In this document: positions 6,058 through 59,800 of the stretch, one piece after another
Layout: each line of letters begins with the position of its first letter
Position numbering within the stretch: the stretch's first letter is position 1
DNA from: Mytilus edulis
Taxonomy: Eukaryota
Assembly (NCBI RefSeq): GCF_963676685.1
Contig: NC_092346.1
Location: forward strand, 68,820,001-68,884,000
Length of the DNA: 64,000 nucleotides
Reading direction: 5' to 3'
Made by a program: the position numbers and the translations under genes
The notes under the pieces: model-generated
What the model was told of the DNA's origin: nothing
Database searches by the model: none
The model's input: the letters and a program-made list of their open reading frames with translations, nothing else

Positions 6058-10313
<4,256 letters not shown>

Positions 10314-10568: not shown

Positions 10569-12184
10569 AACGAAGATGATTTCAACGACATGAACAAAAT
10601 ATGTACTATGCACAACAAAGGGTAAAAAGCTATTGCAAAAAAACAAATAAAAAACAGCTCAGCGCATCACAACAGATGGTATGATTTTGTTATTGATTTT
10701 TAAATACAAATTAGAGTGTTTTTTCCCCGTTTGCATGACACTGGAGATAATGAATTTCTTGTTTTCTTAGCTTCATTTTATAAGCAACGAATTAGCCAGA
10801 ATGTAGTATAAAACATATCTCTATTAAATAAGTTTGTCAGTTTTTCTAATGACTTGGTTCAATATTGGCATTGGAACATGAGGAATTTTCTGTTGATATT
10901 GAAATATTAGAAGTCATGGTTTATATAGAAGAAGATTAAATATATTGTGATTATTGTTTTACTAGAGTTTCTGTTGTTTGTAAAACCGACATTACTGATC
11001 TGAGAAATTGTTCAAATTATCAAATAAAGGCAACAGTACTATACCGCTGTTCAAAGGTCATAAGACGATTAAGCGAAAATAATTCCGGGTCACAAACAAA
11101 AATCAAAGGAAACACATAAACTATAAGAGGGAGACAAAGACACAACAAAAACACTGAACTGCTACTAAAACAAATGCAAACATACATAGACACGGACTAT
11201 TTGATAACAACTGACATATTCCTGACTTTGTACAAGAAATTTTAAGGAAAAAAATGGTCGGTGAAAGCTAGTGTTATGGCTAGCAAAATATAACGCATAT
11301 CTGGCAATGCTAAAATGTCGATAAACTGTACTTTTGAAAAAAGTTGTTGATGTTTTGTCGTTGTTTGTTTAATTTATCGAATTGTCCCACACTTGTGTCA
11401 ACTCAATCATAGGTGTATGAGAACATGTCTCTATGTTGAGAACTCATAGTCCCTCCCCTGTTATTAATATATATCCCTGATTTTTAATATATATATATAT
11501 ATATATAATTTATTTGTACATTATGTTTACCAATTTACCGTATTTAACATACACTATAACAATATATCATTTTACCAGACCACGGTTTGCGGAAGTAGTC
11601 AAGAAGACAATATTATGTTTTTCAGGGGTTGACAGGATACACGTGATCGTTGTTAGTTTCAACTTCAATATTATTATGCAAGCAGATGTAATAAAAAATT
11701 ATTTCATACATTATTTCTTTTTGGTTTACACTTTATATAGGGCTTTATTTATGATCTTATTCCAGAGTGCACAATTCTTATTCTACATATTTCACCTTTA
11801 TCATTTTGTTGTAGGGAAGTTTAGATTAAGTGTCGAGTTAATATGTATATTATTTTGTGTTGTCTGCGAGGAACAAATCATTTTTCTGATCTAGTAACTA
11901 AATTCAAAACCAATATAGATAATGTTAACATGTATATTTTATTGAACTGTGTAAATTAATCAGAATGCGAATGACAACATGCACCTACAATTCTTTTGTG
12001 TGTTTCCCGTTTCTGTAACACATGACATTTGCGCGGGAACTTCTTACATAAACATCGTATTGAAGATTATTGAAACATGTGAAATGTACTGTAACAGTTA
12101 TTGCTTTTTGGAGGTAATGTGATATTATTTATTATTCAATAGTATATAATTTTACGTCAGGTTTGTACACATTAAGTCTCTGGT

Positions 12185-15102: not shown

Positions 15103-16081
15103 AGATTTGCAGGTTTTCTTTGTAAAGATACCTTATTAAAAATATCAACAACTCTGACTGAGTACACAATTTGATTCATTTTAGCTCATTAGCTGGGCTC
15201 ACTCGCTAAAAATATTCATTGCGCCTCACTGGCAAATATCTTACGATACTCATGTGTAGAAAAACTGATAATCTATACATGTGTGTGTGGAGTAGTTAGC
15301 TTAAATATACTTTTAGCTAAATTTGGAAAATTTGAAAATGACTTGGGGAATGAAGATGTACAAAAATGTAGTAAAGACCGAATATCAGTTTTGGTCTTAT
15401 ATATGTAGTTGTATAAAATTTTAGTTTTACATGTATATATGTGTATAAATATATCACTGTTTCAGGGGCAATGGTAAATAGACAATGAAAAGTCTTGGAT
15501 AACATTTTATAGTTTTGAATGTTTCTTCATCAGTTGACTTAAATTAGGTGGAGCCAGGAGGTGTGTTCTTATTTTACTCTAAATATATTATATATATTGT
15601 ATTTTATTGAAGTCTGTTTGGCCTATATATTTTGATGATTTGTTATTTTTGTTGTTCTTGAAACAAGCGAAATTTTATTAATATTTGATATTATTACAAT
15701 GCTTACTGCTGTATCCCGATTTATGACCATTTTACCGTATCATATAATCAAAACTTTATTACAATATTAACAGCTGTTACTCAAATTTTTACATTTTTAC
15801 CTTGTAGGTCTGTTTGTTTTGCCCACACATTGTTGTCAATATAATGAAATTCTATGCCCCTGTCATATCTTTACACTTGAGAGGTTTAACTAGCTATAAA
15901 ATCAGGTTTAACCCACCATTCCTTACATAAGGAAATGTATGTACCAAGTCAAGGAATATAGCAGTTGCATTCCATTCGTTTGATATATTTGAGCTTTTTA
16001 TTTTGCCACTTTTCGTTTTCGGTATTTTTGTTAATTACTTTTTGAACGCTTATATTCATGGTTTCCCTCTTCAAACGAACA

Positions 16082-17379: not shown

Positions 17380-19596
17380 CTATTTTTTAGTTTCTCTTTG
17401 ACGTATTTTCATCATTTCACTAATTCCTTTCATGGCGTCATAAACGCCATCTCCAGTTGTTCCACAGGTTCCTATAATGTCCCACATTCTGTCCAAGTCG
17501 TACAGATGCAGACTTGTTGAAATATCAGAAATAGGTATCGTTTCTAAAATAAATAATTTAAACTGTTATCTATGTATCCTAATAGTATAAACAACATCAA
17601 AAACAACAAGAGTTACACTATCTTGAATAAACAACAAAAACAAAAAATACTTAAAAAATGCACTAGAGGTTTTATTGTAAAGTTTAACAAGCGCATACGT
17701 TAAAGTGCTGTTTTCAGATGTGATCAAAACATATATTGTAGTCAGAAAAAAAATTACGGGAAATGTGTTATTTGTAATATTTATCGCTACTGAGATTCAT
17801 ATCTTATTTCTGATTGCTTTATAATTTCGTATTCTCGTTAAATAAATGCGGAAGATTAGTGTATTGCAGTAAATAAGATTACTACCCCCTTTCCTTAGTT
17901 GTTATATAGAAATCATTTCATATACGTTTTGTACAATACGAATTTAGAAAACTAATATCCAATGTTGTTTATTTGTTCACAGTTCACTTTCTAAATTAAA
18001 CTTAATGGTTTTGCACAGTTTGTGTGCATGTGTTGCTAGTAGTTATCAAAGGTACCAGGATTATAATTTAGTACGCCAGACGCGCGTTTCGTCTACATAA
18101 GACTCATCAGTGACACTCATATCAAAATATTTATAAAGCCAATCAAGTACAAAGTTGAAGAGCATTGAGGATCCAAAATTACAAAAAGTTGTGCCAAATA
18201 CGGCTTAGGTAATCTAAGCCTGGGATAAGAAAATCCTTAGCTTTTCGAAAATTCAAAGTTTTGTAAACAGGAAATTTATCAAAATGACCACATTATTGAT
18301 ATTCATGTCAACACCGAAATGTTGTTGCAGTTGATCATTGTTTGTTTATAAAGTAATATCTAGTATATTATAGCATATGACAAAACACCGCTGTTGAATT
18401 TTATTTGAATATATATTTTTTTTATATTTGAAAAAAAATTACCGGGAAGATCTTGCTTGTTTGCCATTACCATTAAAGGAACACCTGTTAATATCTTTTT
18501 ACTTAGAATGATATTTAGTTCCATAGAGGCTTCTGCTAATGTGTCCTTGTTGGTACTATCAACTACAAACACTATACCTGAATATATTTATACGATTCAA
18601 AATTAATACATGGTTGCAGATTCGATCATTTCAAATGAAATAAGCAAAGGGAAAAAAAGGCGAAGATACCAAAGAGATATTCAAATTCATAAGCGTAATG
18701 AAGTTCTCCTCATTAACTCAACAAAATTATCGGATAACTGGAAAATTACTGATTTTTTATTTATTTAAAATGATATTTAAAATGAAATAATAATATTTAT
18801 TTTCTTTCAATCTTGATGCTATCGAACTAATTGTTTATGTCTTCGGTAGATTGATTTTAACTCTAGTTATATTTGTATTATAGGTAAAAGGTTCCCATGC
18901 AAAATGTTCGAAAATTTATTGATTTACCTTTAGATACACTGAAATAATGTTCCCACATACACCGTAACTCTCTAGGTCCACCAACGTCCCATGCTGTGAT
19001 GTGAACAGTTTTACCAACCTTTGCTGTAAGAATTGGCATTCCTAGCTGGGAAATATTCTTCAATCTGGATTGCAAACCCATACCTCGCATAATGGTTGTT
19101 TTACCTGTCGAAAAATATATCTAATGTAAATCGAATGATAAATAACTACAGTTGTGTAGTTCAACCTTTTTAGATTTGGGTGTAGTATAGGGATAAAATT
19201 GAGAATGGAAATGGGGAATGTGTCAAAGAGACAACAAGCCGACCATAGAACAGACAACAGCAGAAGGTCACCAACAGGTCTTAGCGCTCGGACACACACT
19301 CCATAATCTAGTATATTATAAGAGCATAAACCTAAAGCACGGGGAGGCACTCTACTGTCTCCAAACGGCACTAAAGACCAAAGAAGCATATATCTGATGA
19401 GCGCTATTCCAGCAACATGTGTCATGCGTTCAGAAGTTGGAAGATACCATTGGTTTGAATTAATTTGTTTATTATGATACTTTTGCTTTAAAATAATCTT
19501 ACCCGCATTGTGTAATCCAATCACTATTAAATGAGTTTTATCCAACTCTGAAAAGTGTGAGAATAATTCATCAACTTTCGAGGACTTTCCACCCAT
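17380..19596 (-). CDS. Divergent ARF/ARL paralogue B (189 aa), exons 19596-19503, 19104-18928, 18577-18443, 17543-17380
   Basis: Same 94/177/135-nt phase-1 exon pattern; spliced ORF open (570 nt): MGGKSSK...GLHNAGKTT...NISQLGMPIL...WDVGGP...NKQD...TCGTTGDG. Confidence 0.88.
18073..18116 (-). ncRNA. Type I hammerhead ribozyme, intact core, within a retrozyme copy (~18040-18325) in intron 3 of ARF-B
   Basis: Minus strand: GTGTCA-CTGATGA-GTCT-tatgt-AGAC-GAAA-CGCGCG-TC-TGGCGT. Confidence 0.85.
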
Positions 19597-22035: not shown

Positions 22036-25000
22036 ATGGGATCAAGGTTGTCTAAATCATATTGGTTTCCTTTATTACGGGAACCAGTTTCATACAAAAT
22101 AGTAATGCTTGGATTAGACGGTGGAGGTAGGTACATTACCGGTTCTGTTTGTTTAAGCAATAAGTATTTAATATTGAAAGGTATTATCATGTGTACAAGT
22201 CCATAACACTCGTAATGTAAGCGTTGGAAAAGACTTGGGAATGTTCAAAATATGCTGTAATCGATCTAAAGGTGTTAATCTTTTTTAATTTCTTTATTTT
22301 GGTATACAGTACCGTTGTCCTTCCGTCCGTGGTCAACACTTCGGACAATATTTCAAAAATGTTTTGACAAATTTTCAAGAAAATTTGGGGAATTGTTTAT
22401 ATCTATTGACGTAAGCCACCATTAGAGTTTTTTTTTTCATTTAAGATTTTACGCATCCGAGTTGTATAGGATATTATTCATACGGGCACTCAAGGTACAA
22501 CTCTTTAATAAAATTTGTAATTCTAGGTTACAGGATTTTGTTTTTGTTTTATTGTTTCGTTTTTCAATCAAGCCGAACATTTCCTTAAATTTTGTCAGTT
22601 TGTGACCTTTTATAGCATACGTTATAGATTTTGTTAATTGTTGAAGGCTACCTATAGTTGCTTACATTTACGTCATTTAGTCACGAGTTGATAGTTGCCT
22701 TATTGGGAACCATACCACATCTTCTTATTTTAATATCAAAATCAATGACATTCTTTTTGTTCACAGAAAAAATGCCCATTTCATCAACATTTCTTACATC
22801 AGAAGATATGTCATATTGCATGAGACAGTAAATAAATATTTTTGTATTTGCTTGTAGGAAAAACGGCAATCTTATATAAGATGAAATACAACAGAAATGT
22901 CCAGACAATACCAACGATTGGATTTAATATTGAACCATTACTCCAGTTGAAGGGATCAATTTTACAGTTTGGGACATCTCCTTTCAGGAAAAGATGATTC
23001 CTTTGTGGGTACATTACTTTACAAACACAGAAGGTATGCCTATTTTTGACATTTTTGCCTATTATGTCTATATGTTTTATTCACACATCGTTGTCAATAT
23101 AGTGGAATTTCATGCGACTGTCATACAAGTGAGAGGTATAGCTAGCCATAAATCAACCATATTCTACATAAGAAAATGACTGTACGAAGTCAGGAATATG
23201 ACAGTTCTTATCCATTCGTTTGATGTGTTTGAGGTTTTGATTTTTCCATTTAATTGTGGGCTTTCCGTTTTGAATTTTCCTCGGAGTTCAGTATTTTTCT
23301 GATTTTTCTTTTTAGGTATTTGTATTTTGGCTCAATTGAGTTTCTGTAGGATTCTTACGCAAAACTGTACACTTTCCGTAATCATGAAACAATATATTTT
23401 TTGTAAAATGTATGTCTCAGATCTATGTAACCAATCTGAATTGTAAAACTAACAAACTACATATAGATATGATTTCACTGAATAAATTCCCTGGTTATCC
23501 AGTGACTAATTCACAGGGATACTCGGCCAACTGCTGTTATTTTAGGGGTAAAAAAGAAAAAAAAAGGATTCTTACGCAATGGTTCATTCTGGTAACTTTA
23601 AATCTTTAAGGAATGTCGTGTCACACTTATTTTTATTAATTCTGGCTAACTTAAATTCTTTACACATAATATGAAAAGTGCAAATACCATATATTACCAG
23701 GAAGATTACATGTATCAAACTGTTAATGATAGGAAGCTTTACCATGACTGGAATGGTTTATTTCAGAAAGTCATTTTAATCTTTGCTGTGCTTACTGTTT
23801 TGAGAATTTACACATAAACATATTACTATCCTGTCATGTTTACTGTTCTGAAGTTAATTCTGTAGGGATCATATACGTTGTGGATAGCAATGATGGAGAA
23901 AGACTGAATGAAGCGATAGAGATATTGCATCGTATACTTAACTTTGAAATATTGAAAGAAGTACCACTGGTTGTTGTGGCTAATAAACAGGACCTTCCTA
24001 GTTAGTATTTTATATCTATGAAGTAATTTGTCTTATGTTAAATACCATTTATTGTACACAAATTAAAGGAATGTGTGCATATCTAGCGATTTATAAGTAA
24101 TAAACTTAATAGAAACCAGCATGCCCCCCTCGAATGAGAAAAATCGTGGGTTCGTTCCTCCTGAATTGTTCAAACAATTAGTTATTGCTTCTTGTGCATT
24201 TTGAAGTAAGAGCAAACATTGATCAATTTGAAGTAAAAATAAGTGAATGACTTCCTTCTTTCAATATTTTTCAGAGCTAAGTACTTTTAAAAATCCGACT
24301 CTGCGTGTCAGTCGAGTACAAACAAATCAGGGTAATCTCATTAACATGCTATTGTCCTAAATACTCGAGTAACATTTGTTGTTGACGTCCAAAGACATCA
24401 ATCAGTAAATCAAATGTGGCAATAATAGTGTGTTCGACCAAGAGCCTGATTAAAACAAAAACAATCTACAAATCAGTCTATAAACTGTGAATCTACAACG
24501 CCATCAAAAACGGGGACTGTCTCAGGTTGCTCGTAAGGTTGTTCATGTCAAGTATAAATTCGATGAAAGCTGTACTTTTTATCATTACAATAAACATATT
24601 TTTAAGGGTTATTTCTATGTTTCAAACAACCTTTTCAAAAAGTTGTTGTTATAATGGTATTCTATGCAACTGTTCAACAAGTGAGAGTTTTCGCTAGCTA
24701 TAAAACCAGGCTTAATCCACCAGTGTCTACAAAAAGAAATGCTTTTACCAAGTCAGAAATATGACAGTCGGTTTCCATTCGTTAGATGTGCTTGAGGTTA
24801 TGATTTAGCCATTTTATAAAGGATTTTATTCCGTTTTGAATTTCCCTTCTAGTTCGGTATTTTTGTTATTTAACTTTTTGACAGGCAATGGAAATGTTAC
24901 TCTATTTCAAATTCAATAATAATCCATCATATTTTTTTCACCTTTTCAAAAAGTTGATGTTATAATGGTATTATATGCAACTGTTCAACAAGTGAGAGTT

Positions 25001-25399
25001 TTAGCTAGCTATAAAACCAGGCTTAATCCACCAGTGTCTACAAAAAGAAATGCTTTTACTAAGTCAGAAATATGACAGTCGGTTTCCATTCGTTAGATGT
25101 GAATGAGCTTATGATTTAGCCATTTTATAAAGGATTTTTTTCCGTTTTGAATTTCCCTTCTAGTTCGGTATTTTTGTTATTTAACTTTTTAATAGGCAAT
25201 GAAAATGTTACTCTATTTCAAATTCAATAATAGTCCGTCATATTTTTTTGCAGATGCCATTTGTCCGTCAGAAATTGCAAATGTTTTGAATTTGCATGAA
25301 GTGAGGGACAGACGTTGGTTTATAAACGGTGCAAGTGCCCCAACCGGGAATGGACTAAATGACAGCATGATAGCAATGGTAGAAGCCATCAGGAAATAA
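22036..25399 (+). pseudogene. ARF/ARL paralogue C with 1-nt frameshift in exon 2; exons 22036-22126, 22858-23033, 23866-24000, 25254-25399
   Basis: Exon 2 is 176 nt instead of 177 (GAACCATT for GAAACCATT near 22934). With the base restored: GLDGGGKTA...PTIGFNIE...WDISFQ...NKQD...SAPTG. The indel could be an assembly error. Confidence 0.78.
24630..25250 (+). repeat. Tandem duplication of ~310 bp in intron 3 of ARF-C
   Basis: CCTTTTCAAAAAGTTG...CATATTTTTTT occurs twice (24630-24939, 24940-25250). Confidence 0.85.
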
Positions 25400-31012: not shown

Positions 31013-31560
31013 TATTAAGGCAACAGTAGTATACTGCTTTTCGAAATTCATAAATCGATTGAGAAAAAAACAAATCCGGGTTACAAAAAGAAACTGAGGG
31101 AAACACATCAAATATAAGAGGAGAACTATGACAGAACAGAAACACAACACTAAAATTTAACACACACTGACACGAACTATAATATAACAATGTCCAGTTT
31201 CCTGACTTGGTACACGACATTTTTAGAGAAAAAAAATGGTGGATTGGACCTGGTTTTGGGGTTAGCCAAACCTCCCTCTTTTATAGTAATGTTAAATATA
31301 ACATTAAAATGACAACATTACATTACAGGACTACAATACAAGTAATTTGGAGAACATATAGGACAGAGTAACACACAAATAATAGCTATCAAAAGGTACC
31401 AGGTTTATGATTTAATACGCCAGACGTGCGTTTTGTCTACACAAGGCTAATCAGTTACGCTCAGATAAAAATAGTTCGAAAGCCAAATCAAGAACAAATT
31501 TGAAGAGCATTGAGGACCGAAAGTTCCAAAAAGTTGTGCCTAATACGCATAAGGTTTTCT
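31013..31560 (-). mobile_element. Interspersed repeat (AAGGCAACAGTAGTATAC family) joined to a degenerate hammerhead retrozyme unit
   Basis: Homologous to ~11024-11290 and ~9366-9577; continues into ACGCCAGACGTGCGTTTTGTCTACACAAGGCTAATCAG, a mutated hammerhead. Confidence 0.6.
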
Positions 31561-38970: not shown

Positions 38971-41303
38971 TTAAGCATTGACTATAAACGGCAATAACTC
39001 CTGAAGGAGTCAACTGACCATTTTGGTCATGTTGCCTTATTTGTAGATCTTACTTTGTTAAATATTATTGCTGTTCACAGTTTATCTCTATCTATAATAG
39101 TATTCAAGATAATAACTCAAAACAGCAAAATTGTGGGGCAGCAACACAACAACAAGTTATCCAATTCATCTGAAAATTTCTGGGCAGATAGATATTGACT
39201 TGATAATCAATTTATCCCCGTAAGGTTTGCTCTAAATGCTTTGGTTTCAGAGTAATTAGCCAAAATCTACATTTTACCCCTATGTTCTATTTTTAGCCAT
39301 GGCGGCCATCTTGGTTTGTTGGCCGGGTCACCGCACACATTTTTTTTTAACTACATACCCTAATAAAGATTGTGGCTAAGTTTGGTTAAATTTGGCCCAG
39401 TAGTTTCAGAGGAGAAGATTTTTGTAGAAGGTTACAAAAATTTACGAAAATTGATAAAAAATTGCTATAAAGGACAATAACTCCTTAAGGGGTCAACTGA
39501 CCATTTTGGTCATGCTGACTTATTTGTAGATCTGACTTTGCTGAGCATTATTGCTGCTTACAGTTTATCTCTATCTATGATAATGAGCTAACTTGGTAGT
39601 TGTTGCGGTTACCCAAGCCATGATTAATTTATACCTTGTATTTATCGGCTAGCCGCTACCTTATAAAACAAATGCTAAAGAGAGATGCTAGTATATTATT
39701 GTAATTGCAGCGTTATATACGTTTATTGTTTCGTTATGTTTCTGTTTTGATTATTTTACTATTTAATTTGTATCATCTTATCTTATTGAACTGCGAATTG
39801 AAATAAAATTTATACCTAGACCAAATACATAGAAAAGATTTGTACAAAACACGATTTAACATCCCAATGAATAGAGTAAAACATTGATTATGAAATTGTA
39901 GTTATTATATTTGATGCTAAAGGCCGTCTCGGAATTTGTTAAGTGCCAATTCAATAGAGCATGATACTAGTAGTGTTAAACCTTCATGTACTAACTGTTA
40001 AGATACTGAAGTGTAATTTCAACAGAGCATGCTACTAGTTGTAACTGTACAGATACAGTACAATCTCAATTGAGCATGCTATTAGTAGAGTAGAGCATGA
40101 CAATAGCAGTGGGAAACCTTCCAGTTACTGTTAGATAAAGTGAAAGTTCAATATAGAACATGGCACTAGCAGTGTAAAACCTTCCTCGTTTTTGGTGGGG
40201 TTCGTGTTTTTTTTCTTCAGTTTTCTATGTTGTGTCATATGTGCTATTGTTTGTCTTTTGACGCTCATATCAAAATAGTTACAAAGCCAAACTACTAAAA
40301 AGTTTAAGAGCACTGAGGATCCAAAATTCCAAAAAATTGTGTCAAATACGGCTAGGTAATCTATTCCTGGGACAAGAACATCCTTAGTTTTTCGGAAAAT
40401 TCCAAGTTTCAATAACTGTTCATATAAAGAGTAAGTTCAATAGTGCATGATACTAGTAGTAAAATAAACTTCCAAAAATAGAGCATGACAACAGTAGTGT
40501 AAAAAGTAAAATCACAGAAATACTGAACTCAAAACGAAAAGTCCCTAATCAAATGTCTAAATCAAAAGTTCAAACACATCATACGGAACAACTGTCTGGT
40601 CATATTCCTGACTTGGTACAGGCATTTTATTTTGTAGAAAATGGTGATTAAACCTGGTTTTATATCTAGATTAACCTCTCACTTGTATGACAGTCGTATG
40701 AAATTCAACTATATTGACAACGATGAGTGAACAAAACAAACTGACGTAATAGGTAAAAATGTCAAAAATAGGGGTACAGCAGTCAACGTTGGGTTATTAT
40801 CTTAATCAATTTAACAGTAGCTGTACATTTGAGTACTATTCATTAATTAGTGTTGTCTAGAAAGATACGACGATCTTGTATAATATATACAACTTTATAT
40901 ACTCCGTAACAAAAGTTTAGTAAACCTTCTACTGCAGTAGTTAGTAAGGTCCGTTGACGTCGTTTTATTTTGTTCTCAATAAAAGTAAGTGTAATTTATA
41001 ACCGTATTATTTATTTGCTTGCTATCTTCTTTTTAAAATAATGCTAACAGGCAACAGCTGAGAAGCAAACTAATAACAGCTGGAATATGTCCGTGTATAA
41101 AACTAAATAGAATCTAAAAGTACAATAACTAACACAAACACGTATTGTATTTGATCGATTTCTCTATTCTCTAAACGTATAAATGGTAGGAAGTGGTCCC
41201 GTCATAATTTGGGAAACATGGAAGTTGACATCCGGCATTGATGACAGAATACAATCACGTAGATTAATAATCATGATATAATTTTCAATTAAATATTCAC
41301 AAT

Positions 41304-44281
41304 ATGGGAATGTGCTTATCAAAATGGAGCAAATTTTGGCAACAATTAACAAGTGGTCCGATACCATTGACGATTGTTCTGCTAGGTCTAACCTCAACAG
41401 GTAATTATAAATAATAATTATTGGAAGAATACTTATTTGGCGTCTCAATTTAAGTAAAATAAGAGAACTATTTGTTTGCACAGCAATAGCATCAAAAGAG
41501 GGACGAAAGATACCAAAGGGACAGTCAAACTCATAAATCTAAAACAAACTGACAACACCATGGCTAAAAATGAAAAAGACAAACAGAAAAACAATAACAC
41601 AGCACAATAATTGTTCAAAGTAGAAACCTTGTTGTCAAGTTTGCACCAGCTTACATTAAATATAATAAAGTTACAACAAAAATTTCCGATATTTAGCCAT
41701 TTGATTTATATAACTTATTTCTAATTATTATTATCTGACCTTACCAACGATGTTTCTAATATTTGTAGGGAAAACTACGTTATTATATAAGCTTCAAAAT
41801 AATACTTCTGAGACATTACCTACTATTGGGTTTAACATAGAGACAGTTAATACATTCAGAGGCATATATTTAACAATCTTAGATGTTGGTTGTGGGGATA
41901 AAATCAGACACGAGTGGAAGCGTTATTTCGTAGATGCATCAGGTTAGACATATAACTACTGTATCCAATATCTATTTTCTACATTCGAATACACTCAGGC
42001 ATGATGTTATAATACAAAATTAAAAAGAAAAAATAAGCTTCTTCAATAAAATTGAGAATGGAAATGAGAAATGTGCCAAAGAGAAAAAAAGACTAAAGAT
42101 CAGTCCGAAAGCCACCAATGGGTCTTCAAAACAGCGAAAAAATCCCTAACCCGGAGGCGGGTTTCAGCTGGCCCATAAACAAAAGTATGTACTAGTTCAA
42201 TGAAAATAAACTCCAAATCTCATAAATGAAACAAACAAGACTAACAATTGCCAGAGACTTCTGACTTGGGACAGGTGCAATATTGCGGCGGGGTTAAATA
42301 TGTTTTGTGAGATCTCAACCCCCTTTACCTCTAGCCAATATAGAATGAACAAACACACAGTAATACGTATATAGTAAAACTCATGTTAAGAGAAGTCTCA
42401 GTCCGATGTCCGAATATGTAACAAAAGAAACTAAGCAAATTATAAAAATACAAAAATTATCAAGGGACTGCTTGCTGCTCCAAACTTCAATTAAACAGAT
42501 TGAAAGAGTCTGTCTTCATCATATGAAAATAAAGCACAGTCTCTCTCGTTAGGGGTTTAGTATCATAGTATCATGAAATATATGAGAAGAACGTAACCCG
42601 TATCAAGCCAACAACTGGTTTTAGAATAAACGTGTTTAATTCCAATGCAAAGATACTTCGAAACATGGTTTGATACAGATTCCTGCTCAACATGCAAACG
42701 ATATTAAACTAAACGAATTCTAATGATTTTACCAAAACAATCGTTCTTCAGCTTTTAGTCTCTGTGTGCACCCATATTTATCGGGTTTCGTGATCTGTGA
42801 ATTTATATTGTTATGTTAGTTGAAATATTGTATTGTTGATGAAAACAATTGAAAGAATTTCAATGATCCGAAAGTCTGATATAAAAATGTGATTAGGCAT
42901 TATAATTAGATAAGAGACAACAAATTAAAAGTATTTCATGAGATATTTTTTTTAATCAATAAAATCCGAAGAACAATTGATGATTGTTGCTATTTTTTTA
43001 AAACGTTTTTTTTAAGACACTTCAATCTAGATGTGCATGGCCAAATGTATTCGTCAACCGTTTTTGCAAGCCTCTGTGCAATGATTATGTGCAAACTCTG
43101 CTTCTATTGATACCAAGTTGAAGTTGATTAAAATCTGATCAGAAATTACCACCAAAATTTTTTTTTGAAAAGTTTTATATGACAAGTCAGTGACGGACAT
43201 TAGTTTTATTGCCATGCACTAAACATGCAAATATGTTAAAACCTTAATGCTAACATATAACAGTTGATAGTGGGTTTTGAAGCGAATTCCTTATTTTAGG
43301 CAAAGAACAAGGTTTATTTTTACTTTTTTAGCCATGGCGTTGTCAGTTTACTTTCGATCTATGAGTTTGACTGTTTCTTTTGTATCTTTTGTCCCTCTTT
43401 TGTGGCCAAATATTGCCTTGAATTTCAACTTTATCGGTAAACCAATCTAAATGAAATATAAATCTATGATTGCGTTATTTTCATGCAGATATGTACGAGT
43501 TAATAAAGATATGAATTTTTAATTAGCTTGAGTGATTATTTAAGATGTCGATATATACCTAATTCGTTTATTTTGTTGTTAATATTGTGTGTATTCGTAA
43601 TTATTATTTGTATTGTTATGAATAAATAAATTTTTTAAAAAGAAAATTTTACAGGTATTTTATTTGTTGTTGATAGCAGCGATATAAAAAGATTGCATTC
43701 AGCTAAAGTAGCCCTCCATCGTTACATAGTGAACTGTAAGGAAGCACGAGGTATTCCTCTTGGGGTTATAGCTAATAAGCAGGACCTACCTAGTAAGTCA
43801 CCATTCTTAAAATAACAATAATGAATGAAAAAAATGTTGCCACTTTCATGGATCTAATGTCAAATAAAGCAGAGGGGTTATCTCAAAACATATGTTTTCT
43901 ATCCAAATGCACTTTCAATAATCTTTCGCATCTTGGGACAATAACTACAAAATCATTTGTTTTCTGTAAAATTATGATAATACTTGCAATCATTTTTGGT
44001 ATTTTGCTAAATAAATCTACCATGGATTTTCTCGTTGAATCTACAAATAAAATGTAGTTTAAATGCACGCAAAAATGAAAATGTTTTTAAAAAAAAAATC
44101 TTTTCTTTATTTAATAGATACTTTAACTCCTAAAGATCTGGCATCAGGCCTTGAATTATGTCTGATAGAGGACAGACAATGGTTCATACATGGTATGTGT
44201 GCCAAGACAGGCAGTGGAATAATAGAGAGCATCACTTTACTGATAGAAGCAATTAAAAGGACAAATATGATACGAACGTGA
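41304..44281 (+). CDS. Divergent ARF/ARL paralogue F (190 aa), exons 41304-41400, 41769-41942, 43655-43792, 44118-44281
   Basis: Spliced ORF open (573 nt): MGMCLSKWSKFW...GLTSTGKTT...PTIGFNIE...LDVGCGDKIR...NKQD...CAKTG. Confidence 0.88.
42046..42655 (-). mobile_element. Penelope-like (Naiad) 3' tail copy with degenerate SECIS (~42520-42584), intron 2 of ARF-F
   Basis: Collinear with 51677-52330; the SECIS 3' quartet TGAT is mutated to TTAT. Confidence 0.75.
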
Positions 44282-46802: not shown

Positions 46803-48262
<1,460 letters not shown>

Positions 48263-49001
48263 CATTTTCCATCTTAACATAATAAATAATGTGATCTTAA
48301 AGATGAAAAAGAGACTCCAGGATCTCCCGACATCCTATCTCCTTGGCACTTCGACATCGATCAGTGTGCAATAGACACTGAAATATCGATCCCAAATTAA
48401 ATTAAGGAGCAACTTAACCTAGTGGATTGTGCAATATGTTTGATTGAACTGAGAAAGATGAATAACACGAGTGTTATTATTGTGATTTTTAATGTTATAC
48501 TGTTTTTGTTTTGTTTTGTTTGTATTTAATCATATAAAATAAAAAATATCTTGCATTTAATAGCTTTCTTTTCTGAATCATTCATAATTTCACTTTTTTA
48601 ACTTTAATTTGACTTTATTTTTCATTTCTTTAGTTTTCGACATCATTAATTCTATCGTTCCATAATAATCTGAGTTTTCCCGTGTAGAGGAAATAGTTAA
48701 CCAAAACATTTCTACTTAAATATATAATGATCAATTTGGAGCGTTAGGCTGAATAATTTAGCTCAAACAATCTGACTGTGTCATTTTTCAGTTTTAGCAT
48801 AATCGTAATAACATTCCACAGAATTTCAACTTAAAAAAAAAGGCAGGGTAAAAATGTATTTCTTCTTACAAAAAAGTGCCTTTTTTTCACATTTTACAAC
48901 TGAAATATATAAGATTAGAATAGATGTTAAACTTTTATGAATCAGAATTTGAAATCGGACACGCATATAATATCGTTATGCAAATAGTAGAACAATCATT
49001 A

Positions 49002-49811
49002 TGTTCCGGACCATATGAGTATTTGGACCATACGCGTATGGTCATGACCATATGGGTATATACTCATATGGTCCGACTATACGCGTATGGTCCTACCGTA
49101 CGCGTATGGTCGGGGTAATTAACACTCTGTTACAGTTTACTTTGAATACTTCTAAACTCTTCATATGGTATGACCGTTCATTAGTTAATTTTACTACCTA
49201 GTCAAAATTAAATTATAATAAACACATTTTATACCGATGTCCATTATCGATTTGTTATTACGAGTGAATAGCAATATTTTGACTTGAAAAGATAACTTCC
49301 AAAAATTTCTCAATAAACTCTACACAAGAAGTCACTGGCAAGCGGTACATATTTTATTTAAGTTGTTTTGTGAATATGGTGTATTGTAGTGCATATTACG
49401 ATATTAAAGAACAAAAGGTGTAACTGAAAAGAATCGTGCACAACCATGACGTGCAAACGCAAAAAAAGTTATGTTACCGTGTGGAAGTAAATGTCGCCGT
49501 TAGCCTACATGCAAGAATGTAATAAGCGATGAAAATTAACTTTTGCATTAATATTTAATTTTAACGTAGCCTTTTAAATTAATACATTATCATGTATAAC
49601 CATCATTGTTTTTTCAGACAAAGTTTATTGTATTATTGAAACGTTTGTAATGCATATTTGAAAAAAAAAATATCTATATGGTCAAAATACTCATATGGTC
49701 CGGCCCGTTAATAACCATACAAGTATATACTCATATGGTCCGACCATATGAGTATACGCATATGGTCATGACCATACGCGTATGGTCCAAATACTCATAT
49801 GGTCCGGAACA
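49002..49811. mobile_element. Harbinger-like MITE with long palindrome-rich TIRs
   Basis: TTA-TGTTCCGGACCATATGAGTATTTGGACCATACGCGTATGG ... CCATACGCGTATGGTCCAAATACTCATATGGTCCGGAACA-TTA; absent at the paralogous site (~57520). Confidence 0.8.
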
Positions 49812-51676
49812 TTATACATTTCCATTGATGGTGGAATGTAAATTATAGTTAGTATAAAGTTTAATGCACTTTAACTCAATTTGTATCACAATCCCCCTTG
49901 TATTGAATTATGTTCTCCGCACGTTTTATTTCAAACTGAAACTTTTTTTGATGACTAATCAATCAAAATACACATTACGTATTTTAAATTTCTATGATAG
50001 TATATCCTTCCTCTTATAATTTTTTCTTGGTCTGCGTGAATTAGGGAAATCATGTTCAAGTTTAACTTTCCAAAATATGAATTTAAGGAACTAACAAAGT
50101 AAGACCACACCTGAATTTATTTAGACGACATCTCGGCGATTCCAGTAAATTGTTTTCGAAAAACCAAATTAGGCTTCATCTTGGTAGAATATAGTGTGGA
50201 CAAATAAATGATCCAAGTATTCATCTCATTTGCCTACAAACAGTGGAATATGATACAATAGATGACTAGGATGATACATACAACTAATGGACCTCTTTGT
50301 CTTCATTATTAAAACTTTTTTGGTCCATATATACCTCTCATTTCTTCAAAATATAACTTTTTAAAAAAATTGTGGTAACTTTCACTCATTTATGTTTGAA
50401 ATGTTATGATAAATGAGTAATTGAAATTTCAAGCTGAATATATACAAGTTTACTGACACCAAGGAGGTTTCAACAAGTTCTTACGACAAACTTAAATTTA
50501 CACCACGTTCCAGAGAGGGACATAAAAAGCATCCTTTTTATTGAATAATTTGCTGTGACTACTGAAAAAAAAGTTTCATTTACTTTTAACTTTCTATAAA
50601 AAAAAAAAAAGAAGATGTGGTACGATTGACATTGAGACAACTTTCCACAAAAGACCAAAATGACACATAAATTAACAACTATAGGTCACCGTACGGTCTT
50701 CTACAATCAGCAAAGCCCATACCACATAGTCAACTATAAAAGGCCCCGAAATGACAATGTAAAACAATTCAAACGAGAAAAAAAACTAACGGCCTTATTT
50801 ATATAAAAAAATGAACGAAAAACAAATATGTAACACATAAACAAACGACAGCCACTGAATAACAGGCTCCTTTATTAAAGTATTGATTAAGGAAAATATT
50901 TTTATTAAAGCAGAATATAAGAAATAAGGAGAAAAGGTCAGACAAAGCTACCCAAAACAATAAGTATGGCTTGATCTGACTTCTTATATTCATGGTAGGG
51001 GTCTATTTCACTGCATTTTTCTCATTTAATATGTTTTTGAGACTCAATCCACTCAGATCATTTTTTTTTTAGTAGTTCACCTTAATAGCATGAAATTGTA
51101 ACAAATGGGTAATACCACCATTGTTTTCTCCTATTAGTCTTTGATAAATTTGCAATAAAAAACATATGTGCAGTATTTATCTTTGTTTCAAATAAAGAAA
51201 TACTTGGCGTGAGTAAAGTTTTATACTGCCCGTTACTTTAAACATAATTTCACATGACATTTCATTGCATATTATAAGAAGAAAAAAACATCACTGATAG
51301 TTAACCAATCAAATTATCACTACTTTTTTTTACTTGTGTACAAGCTTTAGTAACCTGGTACCCTCAAGTTTCAACATATTCTATAGAATCACCAAATAAA
51401 AAAGAAATATGGTGCGTTGAAACACCAAATATATATAATGATGACCCAGAATATGTTTACTTTTACTGCAATGTAATGTAGAATTAATTCTACAACTGCA
51501 AAATTCAAGGGATTTTTTCGATCCTTTTTCGTATACAGCCGGACAATCATTTGATGGTATTACAACTGTTACAGAAAACCATTCAAAATTTGGCTTGCAT
51601 ATCTTTAGTTATAGCTGGCTTTTAATTTCCTGTGCGGACACCGAATTTGACTCGATGTCGCAAAGTCATGAGTTGT

Positions 51677-53195
51677 ATAAAATTGAGAATGGAAATGGGG
51701 AATGTGTCACAGAGACAACAACCCGACCAAATAAAAAACAACAGCAGAGGGTCACCAACAGGTCTTCAATGTAGCGAGAAATTCCCGCACCCGGAGGCGT
51801 CCTTCAGCTGGCCCCTAAACAAATATATACTAGTCCAGTGATAATGAACGCCTTACTAATTTCCAAATTGTACACAAGAAACTAAAATTAAAATAAAACA
51901 AGACTAACAAAGGCCAGAGGCTCCTGACTTGGGACAGGCGCAAAAATGCGGCGGGGTTAAACATGTTTGTGAGATCTCAACCCTCCCCCTATACCTCTAA
52001 CCAATGTAGAAAAGTAAACGCATAACAATACGCACATTAAAATTCAGTTCAAGAGAAGTCCGAGTCTGAAGTCAGAAGATGTAACCAAAGAAAATAAACA
52101 AAATGACAATAATACATAAATAACAACAGACTACTAGCAGTTAACTGACATGCCAGCTCCAGACTTCAATTAAACTGACTGAAAGATTATGATTTCATCA
52201 TATGAACATCAGGCACAATCCTTCCCGTTAGGGGTTTAGTATCATACCATCATAACATATATGAGAAGAACATAACCCGTGTCAGGCCAACATCTGTTTT
52301 TAGAATAAATGTCTTTAGTTTTGATGCAAAGACCTTATCAGTGACTCAATATTAACGCCAAAATATGCAATTTTCAATGACTTGACAACAGTATCATAAT
52401 TATATCCCTTCTTAATAAGTCTATTCAAAGGTTTTGTATGTTTCTGAGGTGAATACTGACACCTTTGTGCTTTATAAAGAATATTTCCATAAAAAAATGG
52501 GTGCGAAATACCTGAACGTATTAGAAGTCTGCATGTTGAGCTATATTTACGAATGATGTCTTTATACCGATGATAAAATTTAGTAAATGTTTTGACTAGT
52601 TTGTGATATCGAAAACCCTGGTGTAATAATTTTTCAGTAATACATAAATTTCTCTCGTTAAAATCTAAAACATTGTTACATACGCGAGCGAATCGTACAA
52701 GTTGAGATATATAAACACCGTAAGATGGTGACCAAGGGAACGTCACCATCTAAAAACGGATAATTAACGATAGGAAATGAAAAATCATCCCTTTTATCAT
52801 AAATTTTAGTATTTAGCTTTCCATTAGTGATATAGATATCAAGATCGAGAAAAGGGCAGTGGTCATTGTTAGTATTAGCTTTATTTAAAGTAAGTTCAAC
52901 AGGATAAATTTCATTAATATACATACTGAAGTCGTCATTATTGAGAGCCAAAATATCATCCAAATATCTAAAAGTACTATTAAATTTGTTTATCAGATGT
53001 TGTTTCGATGGGTCTTTGCTTATTTTTGTCATAAATTGTAACTCATAACAATACAAAAACAGGTCCGCAATAAGTGGTGCACAGTTAGTCCCCATTGGGA
53101 TTCCGATAATCTGACGATATACGGAATCCCCAAAGCGAACAAAAATGTTATCTAGTAAAAATTCAAGGGCATATATAGTATCAAAGCATGTATGT
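51677..53195 (-). mobile_element. 5'-truncated Naiad-type Penelope-like retroelement: RT/thumb (one frameshift near 52735, stop at 52315) plus ~640-nt 3' tail
   Basis: GIPMGTNCAPLIADLFL, RYLDDIL, FLDL, YDKRDDF, SYGVYISQLVRFARVC motifs; no C-terminal GIY-YIG before the stop. Confidence 0.88.
52199..52263 (-). promoter_or_regulatory. Eukaryotic SECIS element (type II)
   Basis: Minus strand: CATAT-ATGTT-ATGAT-GGTATGATACT-AAA-CCCCTAACGGG-A-AGGATTGTGCC-TGAT-GTTC-ATATG: AUGA/UGAU core, 11-bp helix II, apical AAA, mini-stem, helix I; starts ~50 nt after the RT stop. Confidence 0.8.
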
Positions 53196-53776
53196 TTATA
53201 TATCTCACCGTAGATGGTTTTTACTGCAAATAGAGAAATTATGCGCATATACTAACAAGTATAAATAATCAAACTTTCATGATAGTTGGACATATGAATT
53301 TCATACTTTGTTTAACTTTGAAGTTATAAGTTCACCAGCAATCGATCATTTGCCCAAAATTTTTCCATTTCTACGTTTTTTTTCTTTTGGTTGATAAGAA
53401 AGCAAATATAAGCATTAGACTATGTTTACCACCCTCCCTATATAAAACGTAATATACCAAATTGATTGTATGGTACCCTCAACAACAACAAGACAGTAAG
53501 TACAGATCTGAGAGTACTCGCAGTTACTGACAGCTGGTTCAAAGCCACTAACAACTAATAAAAAAAGCATGCATGTAAGACTGAATACAGAAATAATCCA
53601 ACACGATAAGAAAAAGAGAAGCATGAAGAACATATTGATAGTTTGCAATTCTTAATATATTTAAACAAACAAATTAATGACGTATTAATTTTTTACAACA
53701 AAATTGAAAATAATATTAAATGCAAAAAAAAAGCAAAAACAAAAACAAAAAACAAAAACAAAAATCACCTTTCTTG

Positions 53777-53954: not shown

Positions 53955-54702
53955 TTCTTGTACTTATTATAATTTCAATAAATTTATATTTTTTTGGCAA
54001 TTCTGTTACAATAAAATTGAGAATGGAAATGGGGAATGTGTCAAAGAGACAACAACCCGCCCAAATAAAAAACAACAGCAGAGGGTCACCAACAGGTCTT
54101 CAATGTAGCGAGAAATTCCCGCACCCGGAGGCGTCCTTCAGCTGGCCCCTAAACAAATATATACTAGTCCAGTGATAATGAACGCCATACTAATTTCCAA
54201 ATTGTACACAAGAAACTAAAATTAAAATAATACAAGACTAACAAAGGCCAGAGGCTCCTGACTTGGGACAGGCGCAAAAATTTACTTTAGAATGTGCCTT
54301 ATTTCTTGTTTCGCAGAGTTCAAATTGTATACACTAATAAAGAAATAAAGACAGCATATCTGCTTAGAAAACTGTTGTTAATATCTATATCTATATATAG
54401 CTAATATTGTCGATTTAGGAAAATACATATATGTATTTATTCAGTCGTCACGGTGCAATGTAATTTAACATTCGATACTCCTCGATCTTTTACGCGTTAA
54501 TCATAGATTTAAAAATATCTGTCAAACTTGCCATGCTGGAAGTTAAATGCTGGATTGTACGACTTGGTTGTGTTCAAATGGCATGTGTGACGAAATCGCG
54601 CTTAAAGATAAACTATAAAAAGCAGAGGTTTTTTAACAGTTCTATTCAATTTCGAAAAGCTGTGAAGAAGTGAACTAGTAAACAAATAAAAATAAATACA
54701 AA

Positions 54703-56868
<2,166 letters not shown>

Positions 56869-59800
56869 CATTTCCCATCTTAACACAAGTAATGTGAACT
56901 TAAAGATGAAAAGGGGACTCCGGGATATATATCCTGAAACCCTATCTCCTGGTCACATCGACATCAATCAGTGTGAAACAGAAACGAAAGATAGATCCCG
57001 CATCAAATTGAGGAGCAATAAAAATACGTGGATTGTGCAATATATTTAATTGAACTCAGACAGAGAAATTAAAAGATAGATAATATTGTGATATTTTATG
57101 TTATTCTTTTTTTTGTTATGTGTGTATGTATTCATAAATAAAAATTAACAATGGATGTTTTTTTTCTGACTCATTAAAAAGTTAAGAGGAACACAATGAT
57201 AAAACTAAATTATTCTTTGTTTAGTTTTTGACATCATGAATCCCATCATTCCATAATGGCCTCAATGACTAATATAAAGATATACAAGCTGATTGTTTCA
57301 AATTACAATTTATAAAATATCCCGAAAGAGCTTTCTATGGAAAATAATATTCAAATTAATTAACAAAAAAAGGGTAGAAAATGCATTACATGTTTCAAAG
57401 AAGGTGCATTTTTTTTTTACATCATTTACAAATTTACAACCAAAAAATACAAGATTACAATAATGTTTAAATCAATCAGAACACATATATGATATCTTTA
57501 TACAAAGAGTGAAAAATGCAATGTACAGAACCATTGATTGTGTGATGTAAATTAAAGTTATTTACAGCTTAATGCTCTCGTACTTCGATAACCAAAAGTA
57601 TCAAAATCGCTCATTATGCACTCCACACGTATTTTTTTTTACAAAAACTTTTTAAAAGATTTTCAAACAATAACATGTAGTATATAACGTAATCGGAGAT
57701 CAATATTTTAATCAGATTGTTGGAAAATATGCATTTTCTTCCTCTATCAATTTTTCCTGGTATAAGAGTTCTAAAAAAATATGTTCTAGTTCAACTTTCC
57801 AAACCCAAAAATGGATGATAGGGACCTAAGTAAGACAACATCTGATAATTTTTTATACATATTGTCCTCCAATTTATAAATTTAAACACCAGTGGATGAA
57901 GTATAGTTGGCTTATGATTTTTTATTCTCAGCTTTTAGTTCTTAATACGAAACTGTTAACATGTTTTTAAAAAGGACAAAGAACAAAGGACTTTTCAATC
58001 ATGCCTTCTACAAAAAAAAAAAGGTTTCAATCATTTTAAACTTGTGAGTCCTAAATTATTGCTAAACGTTTGTCCATTATGTATCCTGTTTGCATACCGA
58101 TTTGGACTCAATAACTTGTATTACAAATAGTTACTGGCGACTGAGCTAAACACCAAGGTTACCGCATGAGAAGTAGCGAATGCGTTCTCCTACATAGCAT
58201 TTGATGTCAAACTGTGGGCCTCATGTTTGTTGGTTTTAGAATAATACAAAATTGAAAAAAGTGCAGAGACAAAATATATCTGCAAATTTAGAAACCAATT
58301 GTCAACACGGTAAATCCTATAACGTATGAGTTTGAACGTCCCTTTTGGTATCTTTCGTCTCTCTCATATCACATGGCAAGGTGTTAAACTCCCTTGCTTA
58401 CTCGTGAGGTTCTCGAACGGTCAGAAAACGAAAACAAAAGTTGTGTTTTATAATAGTATATGAATATGAATTCAAAACAACGATGTATTCATATAAAGTT
58501 AACAGTTTGTTTTTTTTACAAAATATATGTAATTGTTGACCGAATGACTGCTAAAATGGCGTACTCCGGGAATGTATTCGTCAAGCAAAATTTAAACCAA
58601 TTTTACACCAAGCTTCTATAGCCTGCTGTACTTGCTGCTTGCTATTTAAGGAGGGCAACGATAACATTCAACTGAAGTTTGTTTTTATTTCAACTTATTT
58701 CTCATTTCATTTTTTTTTACCATTTACAATAAGGCTTTCCCGTAAGTTTATAACTGATGGCGGCCTTTCAAAAACGGGACAAACAATAAAAAGATCTAGT
58801 TTTAGGGTCTACAACAAGGGAGGTAGTATTTTTTCACTAGAATTCCTACTGAGTGGTCGATTAAATTTGTAACGAAAAGCTGAGTTTCACACTAGTAGTC
58901 AGTTCGGAAGCCGTATAGTAGTTCGGGGGATCAACAATTTGTTTTCTCTAGGTATTTCAGCATGTTTTAACTAATGAGTGCTCCAATAACTTGCGTGATA
59001 CAGAGGTCGATAGTTTTCTGCTTATGGTATTGTCACTTTTCAACTACTTATAAAAGGTAATTTTCAGTGTTGTTAGAGTGTCGAAAATGGTTGTTAGTGA
59101 TGGTGCAAGGTGTTCAGCACATTCTCAGAGAACTGTATGTTGTTTCGGGTGAAGCTTTGGTAGGATCGACTTCCCTTAGTAATTCTGCGACTCCTTGTTC
59201 TATTATAATAATCTATGAGTTTCATTGATATCTTTTCCGGCAAAAAAGTTCCTACTTTAGAAAAAAAAAGATTGTTTTTACATGGCTTGAAAAGAGACAT
59301 GTTATATTATATATTTCTGGTTGAAATGAAAATATTGACCACAATAAGATTCTGTGTTATAATTTGTCAATGAAACCGCACTTTTTGTGGTGCTATGCTT
59401 CAAAGGACAATCAATTTGCAACAGTTTGGTGAGATGTTTCAGCAGAGACACATCATACAGTATGACACAAATTCGTACACGTACAGCAAAACAAGCAAAG
59501 GAACAGGAATTGCTGTTCTTTATCTGAAAGACCTTAAACTCAGGGAAAAAACTCTAACCCCACTGCAAGTTCATACGGCGCCTAGCACCGGCTTTACATT
59601 TAGCAGATTTCTGTGCAAACCGACGATTTCGAACAATATTGAATTGCAGAACAATACCATGGAGTAATAACAAAAAAATATCAAACATTTACTGTCACAA
59701 TTTAGTCTGACAATCACATTTAATTTTATAAAATAAACCTGTATTTAACTTCTTACTAAAAAAAAAGTAGAAACAAAAGAAGTAAGAGATAAGACTGATG

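Follow-up and report, generated by a model that had tools for sequence, protein, structure and literature searches.

A hairpin on the minus strand of a 64,000-nucleotide stretch of the Mytilus edulis genome (the window; NC_092346.1, 68,820,001 to 68,884,000) resembles a SECIS element and lies in the tail of a retroelement. This raises the question of whether the hairpin is a real SECIS, which UGA codons it would serve, and whether it could act on host genes. Our analysis identifies it as a genuine SECIS of a selenoprotein-encoding Naiad. We consider it highly probable that it is the 3' UTR SECIS of a Naiad Penelope-like element (PLE) family, in which it likely decodes four UGA codons as selenocysteine (Sec).

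Structure of the SECIS hairpin and its carrier copy

The hairpin and its surroundings comprise the following features:

51676..53191, minus strand: Naiad (Penelope-like) copy, subfamily A, 5'-truncated, 97.7% identical to the intact copy L108
52315..53191, minus strand: C-terminal third of the RT frame, with a frame-breaking 1-nt deletion near 52732 and its TAA stop at 52317-52315
52199..52263, minus strand: type II SECIS element with AUGA/UGAU core, helix II, AAA and apical mini-helix
51923..51989, minus strand: twister-P5-like motif, 23.1 bits against a cut-off of 37.6 (RF02684)

The hallmarks of eukaryotic SECIS elements (RF00031) are present, i.e. the AUGA...UGAN non-Watson-Crick core with helix I beneath it. 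On the minus strand the AUGA strand of the core maps to 52253-52250 and the UGAU strand to 52211-52208. Helix II has 11 positions (52248-52238 with 52222-52212), ten of them paired and one an A.G mismatch, and above it follow the AAA at 52237-52235 and a CCC/GGG mini-helix at the apex. The preliminary description, which named no strand, had placed a canonical SECIS directly downstream of the RT stop, and both the element and its position are borne out: the hairpin lies 51 nt behind the stop codon, and in a search of 1.8 kb the match to Rfam SECIS_1 has precisely the coordinates 52199-52263 (E 4.9e-4). The score of this match, 32.3 bits, is below the gathering threshold of 35 bits, which explains why an Rfam scan of the whole window at gathering score returned no matches. 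Thirteen sister copies in the same genome score between 35 and 41.4 bits. The folding energy is unremarkable (z -1.88; 11 of 200 shuffles equally good). The hairpin shares the core, the 11-position helix II, the AAA and the apical mini-helix with RF00031; it differs in its score and in its carrier, a mobile element with thousands of copies. Its sequence is the same as that of the SECIS in the intact copy L108. The carrier copy itself contains none of the four UGA codons of the family, and the SECIS is therefore a passenger at this locus.

The intact element and its copy number

Stepping upstream through genomic copies gives an element length of about 3.85-3.9 kb. Intact copies hold one 1002-codon endonuclease-reverse transcriptase (EN-RT) frame from Met to TAA, with in-frame UGA at codons 55, 86, 97 and 522 only. 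The frame contains an N-terminal CxxxxUxxC finger, a GIY-YIG-type EN, a KR-rich block, CxC, GPKY and DKA motifs, and the RT. This corresponds to the layout of Naiad PLEs, with an N-terminal GIY-YIG EN carrying CX2-5CxxC and CCHH motifs and a C-terminal RT recognized by its motifs. Pfam searches with the full protein (P0001) and with its EN part gave no significant RT or GIY-YIG match, so the domain calls rest on motifs and on homologs; P0015, a Cys-type homolog with PF01541, shows 39% identity over 925 aa. Further Naiad traits are a body within 3.4-4.4 kb, 5' truncation and a tandem pseudo-LTR arrangement, in which pairs lie ~4.03 kb apart and reads join 4337 to 446. Subfamily B is very young, with ORFs that are 99.75% alike (L179 and other loci), and its loci are often head-to-tail tandems with the same ~4.03 kb spacing. 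A genome search for more divergent families with the C-terminus of P0003 gave matches that, taken together, looked like the A/B group.

The high copy number suspected for the tail is evident from at least 4,981 exact genomic matches to a 30-nt SECIS pattern, compared to none for the reversed control. An exact pattern at the codon-97 site yields at least 439 EN-bearing copies, i.e. about eleven SECIS tails per EN-bearing copy. Target-primed reverse transcription of PLEs begins at the 3' end and usually stops early, which would explain this ratio: 3'-end-first synthesis would leave a SECIS in almost all insertions, the majority of them without the UGA codons.

Four UGA codons are maintained in a frame under purifying selection

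In subfamily A, 5 of the 20 loci chosen for long frames have the 1002-codon frame with four UGA; in subfamily B it is 13 of 15. UGA is retained in all 18 intact frames across the subfamilies despite a dS of 0.27. The two subfamilies differ by a dS of 0.27-0.28 with a dN/dS of 0.117-0.129; by stretch, the ratio is 0.05 for codons 1-97, 0.125 for codons 98-522 and 0.126 for codons 523-1002. Because both subfamilies keep all four UGA under low dN/dS, the active elements were very likely translated through all of them, as judged from these sequence comparisons. Three of the codons lie in the EN region, and the corresponding TGA are present in 139 of 150 scored EN matches, even with Cys at these positions of the query. 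The codon-97 site is TGA in 97 of the first 100 listed of the 439 matches. Among 120 database homologs, the EN columns contain Cys in 31 of the 32 sequences aligned at position 55. At position 522, 104 of the 120 have Cys and 11 have Trp. Sec is hence not essential at position 522. The homologs with Trp in place of Cys or Sec at this site (DKA+8) are P0004, P0008, P0009 and eight more; three such homologs placed in the tree fall into the Sec clade, which fits a TGA-to-TGG change.

The SECIS had been proposed to serve the UGA codons of the EN domain. For full-length copies this is strongly supported by the four UGA, the Cys columns and the purifying selection. The proposal needs correction in two respects, since the fourth UGA lies in the RT N-terminus (DKA+8), so that the RT would also depend on the SECIS, and since the copy at 53191-51676 has no UGA codons to be served.

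SBP2 and eEFSec deliver Sec-tRNA to UGA codons. In the full-length sense RNA the SECIS follows the last UGA at a distance of over 1,400 nt, and the host genome contains five tRNA-Sec matches above cut-off. We propose that the SECIS of full-length copies recruits the host selenocysteine machinery, with SBP2 and eEFSec bringing Sec-tRNA to the four codons. These would then be read as selenocysteine to give a single 1002-residue endonuclease-RT protein. A single SECIS serving four UGA would be expected to give a low and selenium-sensitive yield of full-length protein. SBP2 binding, Sec insertion and the low, selenium-dependent yield are inferred from the established SECIS/SBP2/eEFSec pathway, and the link to selenium supply drawn in the preliminary description is plausible on the same grounds. 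Just under the tRNA-Sec cut-off, a tRNA-like unit (45.9 bits) occurs in a tandem array with an 895-bp period (G000:C10:14401393-14442259 and G000:C945); it probably represents another tRNA type.

Conservation and covariation of the SECIS

Across 157 distinct locus rows, the core and the AAA are unaltered in every common haplotype, and 26 of 30 young subfamily A loci pass a strict SECIS pattern. Helix II shows five recurrent changes within the genome. Four of these are one-sided and yet keep pairing, which is about the chance expectation from transitions and not significant. In subfamily B, the youngest, the first pair of helix II, next to the core, is an A.C mismatch. Between A and B the SECIS differs at 5 of 65 positions and is no better conserved than the remaining tail. 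Within the genome the evidence for selection on the structure is weak; divergent relatives are more telling. Convincing covariation is absent among the genome's own copies and present in the relative L254, the one sequence that supplies all four double-sided helix II changes; 1 of 500 shuffles is as high. The L254 SECIS retains the same apical loop, with all 11 helix II positions paired.

A SECIS descriptor matches the 3' regions of 10 of 17 metagenome relatives (L255 being the same family), compared to none of the six Cys-type loci and 6 of 1050 shuffles. The matched helices have only ~3.5 of 10 letters in common. Pairing holds at 105 of 110 helix pairs, a figure that is partly circular since the descriptor selects for pairing. 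The UGA-bearing relatives L262, L263, L269 and L265 gave no descriptor match; the L265 contig ends inside the frame. Among 20 relatives Rfam detects a SECIS in six, three of which belong to the A/B families; one of the six, that of relative L266, is above the cut-off at 38.8 bits.

The Cys-type Naiad of the same genome serves as a control family: it has Cys at all four sites at 6 of 6 loci, and a SECIS match was found at none of the six at E<=10. In a quick tree all 11 UGA-bearing frames form one clade (SH-aLRT 100) apart from 28 Cys-type rows, and no full-length Cys protein falls within it. This tree excludes frameshifted relatives, most partial homologs and published sequences, and since kin share labels it speaks to clustering only. 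With the UGA-bearing relatives united in a single clade, the use of Sec seems to be an ancient feature of one Naiad lineage.

A twister-like motif downstream of the SECIS

About 210 nt downstream of the SECIS the tail contains the twister-P5-like motif listed above, which was detected with E 0.0036 in a preselected 141-nt search and is absent from the listing of the 1.8-kb search. It displays the conserved GAGGG, UAA and GUCCCAAG, with P2, P3 and P4 paired. In an alignment of seven sequences 98% of cells are paired and three pairs show double changes, and the motif is kept in the relatives L254, L261 and L271. Two short palindromes of its P1 region change as palindromes, i.e. they covary, which hints at dimer folding in tandem copies. 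The Rfam matches to the element include no canonical hammerhead ribozyme, an absence typical for Naiad PLEs, and by analogy the putative twister could fill the role that the hammerhead has in other PLEs. No read-end pile-up at the expected cleavage site was seen among the rows listed. A search by title and start of abstract returned no twister in a Naiad, with most subscription journals, Dfam and Repbase outside its scope, and the word twister is absent from the main text of PMC8557442. Further twister-P5-like motifs occur in the window at 9075-9164 (plus strand) and, decayed, near 42272 (minus strand).

Naiad copies, host genes and transcription in the window

Apart from the carrier copy, the window contains the following Naiad pieces and host genes:

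54011..54281, minus strand: second short 3' tail, subfamily A, 98.5% identical to 51677-51947
42046..42653, minus strand: old and decayed tail, 74%, lying antisense between two Arf-like exons; its SECIS at 42520-42584 is broken
8375..9369, plus strand: internally deleted Naiad copy, 5' end and EN fragment joined to a SECIS-less tail
46893..48262, plus strand: 3' exons of a host Arf-like gene, GT..AG junctions in run X24
54793..56860, plus strand: duplicated host Arf-like gene on the other side of the SECIS copy, on the opposite strand

The short tail at 54011..54281 begins within the twister-like motif and lacks the SECIS. A decayed second SECIS copy, as previously suggested, is indeed found at 42520-42584: the 3' core G is lost, with UUAU instead of UGAU, helix II is broken (MFE -2.8), and Rfam gives no match at E<=0.5. 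In the closest genomic relatives of this tail the core is mostly kept, as judged by eye, and 9 of 30 pass the strict SECIS pattern, compared to the 26 of 30 young loci. The copy at 8375..9369 retains TGA at the codon-55 and codon-97 sites, while the codon-86 site is deleted; it sits in sense orientation in an intron of an Arf-like gene. Old tail fragments of the Cys-type (Mgal-like) Naiad are scattered over the window (11203-11280, 15878-15981, 23053-23314, 24679-25094, 31199-31255 and 40499-40785), and a palindrome-rich, MITE-like inverted repeat pair is located at 48998-49114 and 49711-49815, ~800 bp apart.

Spliced reads of run X24 define plus-strand exons at 46893-48105 and 54793-56206, and the SECIS copy at 51676-53191 lies between these two Arf-like genes on the opposite strand. 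They belong to a tandem cluster of Arf-like GTPase genes, at least six or seven in number (window ~6590-56860), one of which is on the minus strand near 18460-19000. The segment 46392-48666 is duplicated at 54289-57257, and the duplicate starts beside the Naiad tail that ends at 54281. We considered the window SECIS copy as an element serving a host gene and rejected this on account of its antisense position between the two genes. With both SECIS copies oriented antisense to Arf-like genes, there is no host UGA that either of them could serve, and the read-through of host UGA codons envisaged in the preliminary description has no support in the window; no host gene using a Naiad SECIS was found at this locus.

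RNA reads were analysed at the level of the family, as they are not assignable to single copies; the runs may stem from a sister species. On both strands, read depth climbs toward the 3' end. Coverage of the SECIS region is 3-9x that of the EN region on the presumed sense strand, at a rough level of 180-390 TPM-like units assuming a mean transcript of 2 kb. In the three stranded-looking runs tail reads are equally common or commoner on the presumed antisense strand. A one-strand excess in the EN region, about 5 to 1, is clear only in run X22. Strand polarity is uncalibrated, because the stranded-looking runs X21-X23 show hardly any expression of the Arf genes, and X24 appears to be unstranded. 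Reads extend beyond the 3' end of the element into many dissimilar flanks, as expected from passive co-transcription, and the tail RNA may be nuclear and intronic.

Could truncated tails nevertheless also act on the host, either by conferring read-through when inserted in sense orientation into 3' UTRs or by titrating SBP2 with SECIS RNA? We regard this as unlikely. The number of tails and the depth of presumed sense reads over the SECIS, with their run-on into many flanks, are in its favour, as is the finding that all 30 of the best Rfam SECIS_1 loci inspected are Naiad-derived (130 of ~47,000 candidates were scored). For titration, the abundance of SECIS-region RNA on both strands counts as well. 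Against it speak the antisense orientation of both window copies, the equal or greater abundance of presumed antisense tail reads, and the downstream twister-like motif, which could remove the poly(A) of a host mRNA with a sense insertion. A wider form of this idea appears similarly doubtful. In mussels, mobile SECIS might outnumber host SECIS about hundredfold and be co-transcribed on a large scale, competing for SBP2 or converting host genes ending in UGA to read-through or to new selenoprotein genes, and the tail might be a cassette of a SECIS and a dimer-forming twister that replaces the PLE hammerhead.

Alternative readings of the UGA codons

The UGA codons could alternatively be bypassed or read by near-cognate Cys or Trp tRNAs, with the SECIS as a relic of an earlier selenoprotein phase. 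The 11 of 120 homologs with Trp at DKA+8, the A.C mismatch adjoining the core that subfamily B tolerates, and the UGA-bearing relatives without a detectable SECIS would fit such a reading. However, four consecutive leaky stops would leave almost no protein, the core and AAA are unaltered in the common subfamily haplotypes, helix II covaries between families, and UGA persists in all 18 intact frames at a dS of 0.27. We therefore judge this reading very improbable. That the UGAs are true stops and the family is non-autonomous, mobilised in trans by the Cys-type Naiad that has intact 1053-codon frames in the same genome, is barely credible because of the purifying selection over the whole frame (dN/dS ~0.12, and 0.05 around the EN UGAs), and also in view of stops that fall only on conserved Cys columns and of full-length copies that are abundant and young (subfamily B 99.75% alike).

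Comparison with known Naiads

Translation of the four UGA as Sec agrees with what is known of related elements. Our literature search, with most subscription journals, Dfam and Repbase outside its scope, found one report on Sec-encoding Naiads, which describes them in two clams and two spiders (Craig et al. 2021, PMC8557442). Like the clam elements Naiad_Mmer (Mercenaria mercenaria) and Naiad_Scon (Sinonovacula constricta), the mussel family combines an N-terminal GIY-YIG EN and RT in one frame, places UGA at the Cys that precedes GIY-YIG, at the first Cys of CCHH and at DKA+8, and carries its SECIS after the stop (PMC8557442). The stop-to-SECIS sequence of L266, which falls into the same clade as the mussel Sec-Naiad in the quick tree, closely matches the Naiad-Mmer context in the text of Fig. 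S3B of that report (PMC8557442).

In contrast to both clam elements as described there, the mussel family has one more Sec, in place of the second Cys in the CX2-5CxxC finger, and its relatives add a Sec in the CxC motif. The mussel SECIS has a type II mini-helix, whereas the clam elements are called type I, and the distance from stop to SECIS is 51 nt compared to 1-21 nt or an overlap in the clams (PMC8557442). Sec at the second finger Cys is reported in PMC8557442 only for the spider element Naiad_Sdum. With Naiad_Sdum and Naiad_Smim (Stegodyphus) the mussel family further shares Sec at the Cys before GIY-YIG and at DKA+8; the spider Naiads differ by Sec at the first finger Cys, none at the first CCHH Cys, and a reduced IFD. 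The mussel family thus unites the Sec sites of the clams with one site of the spiders and has a type II SECIS (PMC8557442).

The Mytilus elements Naiad_Mgal and Naiad_Mcor belong to the same PLE clade (PMC8557442, File S1). In the Cys-type family of our genome the N-terminus barely differs from the visible part of Naiad_Mgal; this Mgal-like Naiad differs from the Sec family by Cys at the four sites, lack of a SECIS at 6 of 6 loci and a separate tree branch. Of the 11 bivalve rows in PMC8557442, four are mytilid families without comments on UGA or SECIS, and for most bivalve Naiads no insertion preference is given there. The Sec-Naiad is a new family of a known kind, the mussel families of PMC8557442 being Cys-type.

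Selenoprotein-encoding transposons, described in two clams and two spiders, now include a young and very abundant mussel family. Relative to the accessible part of that report, our analysis adds evidence from covariation, purifying selection and a control family. Donation of SECIS elements to host genes by truncated copies has already been proposed there (PMC8557442), and with ~5,000 tails this genome is well suited to testing that idea. In practical terms, gene callers split and miss the frames of the Sec-Naiad lineage, and searches for SECIS elements or selenoproteins in such genomes will be swamped by Naiad tails.

The genome also contains a five-Sec sister family (L258:473-3481, with genomic copies L338-L349 and a piece in the window at 53495-53585, minus strand), which likewise extends selenoprotein-encoding transposons to the mussel. 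Its copies are 98-100% alike and contain five UGA, the extra one in the CxC motif. Its SECIS (AUGAC/CGAU) is located ~140 nt after the stop and was missed by Rfam at E<=2.
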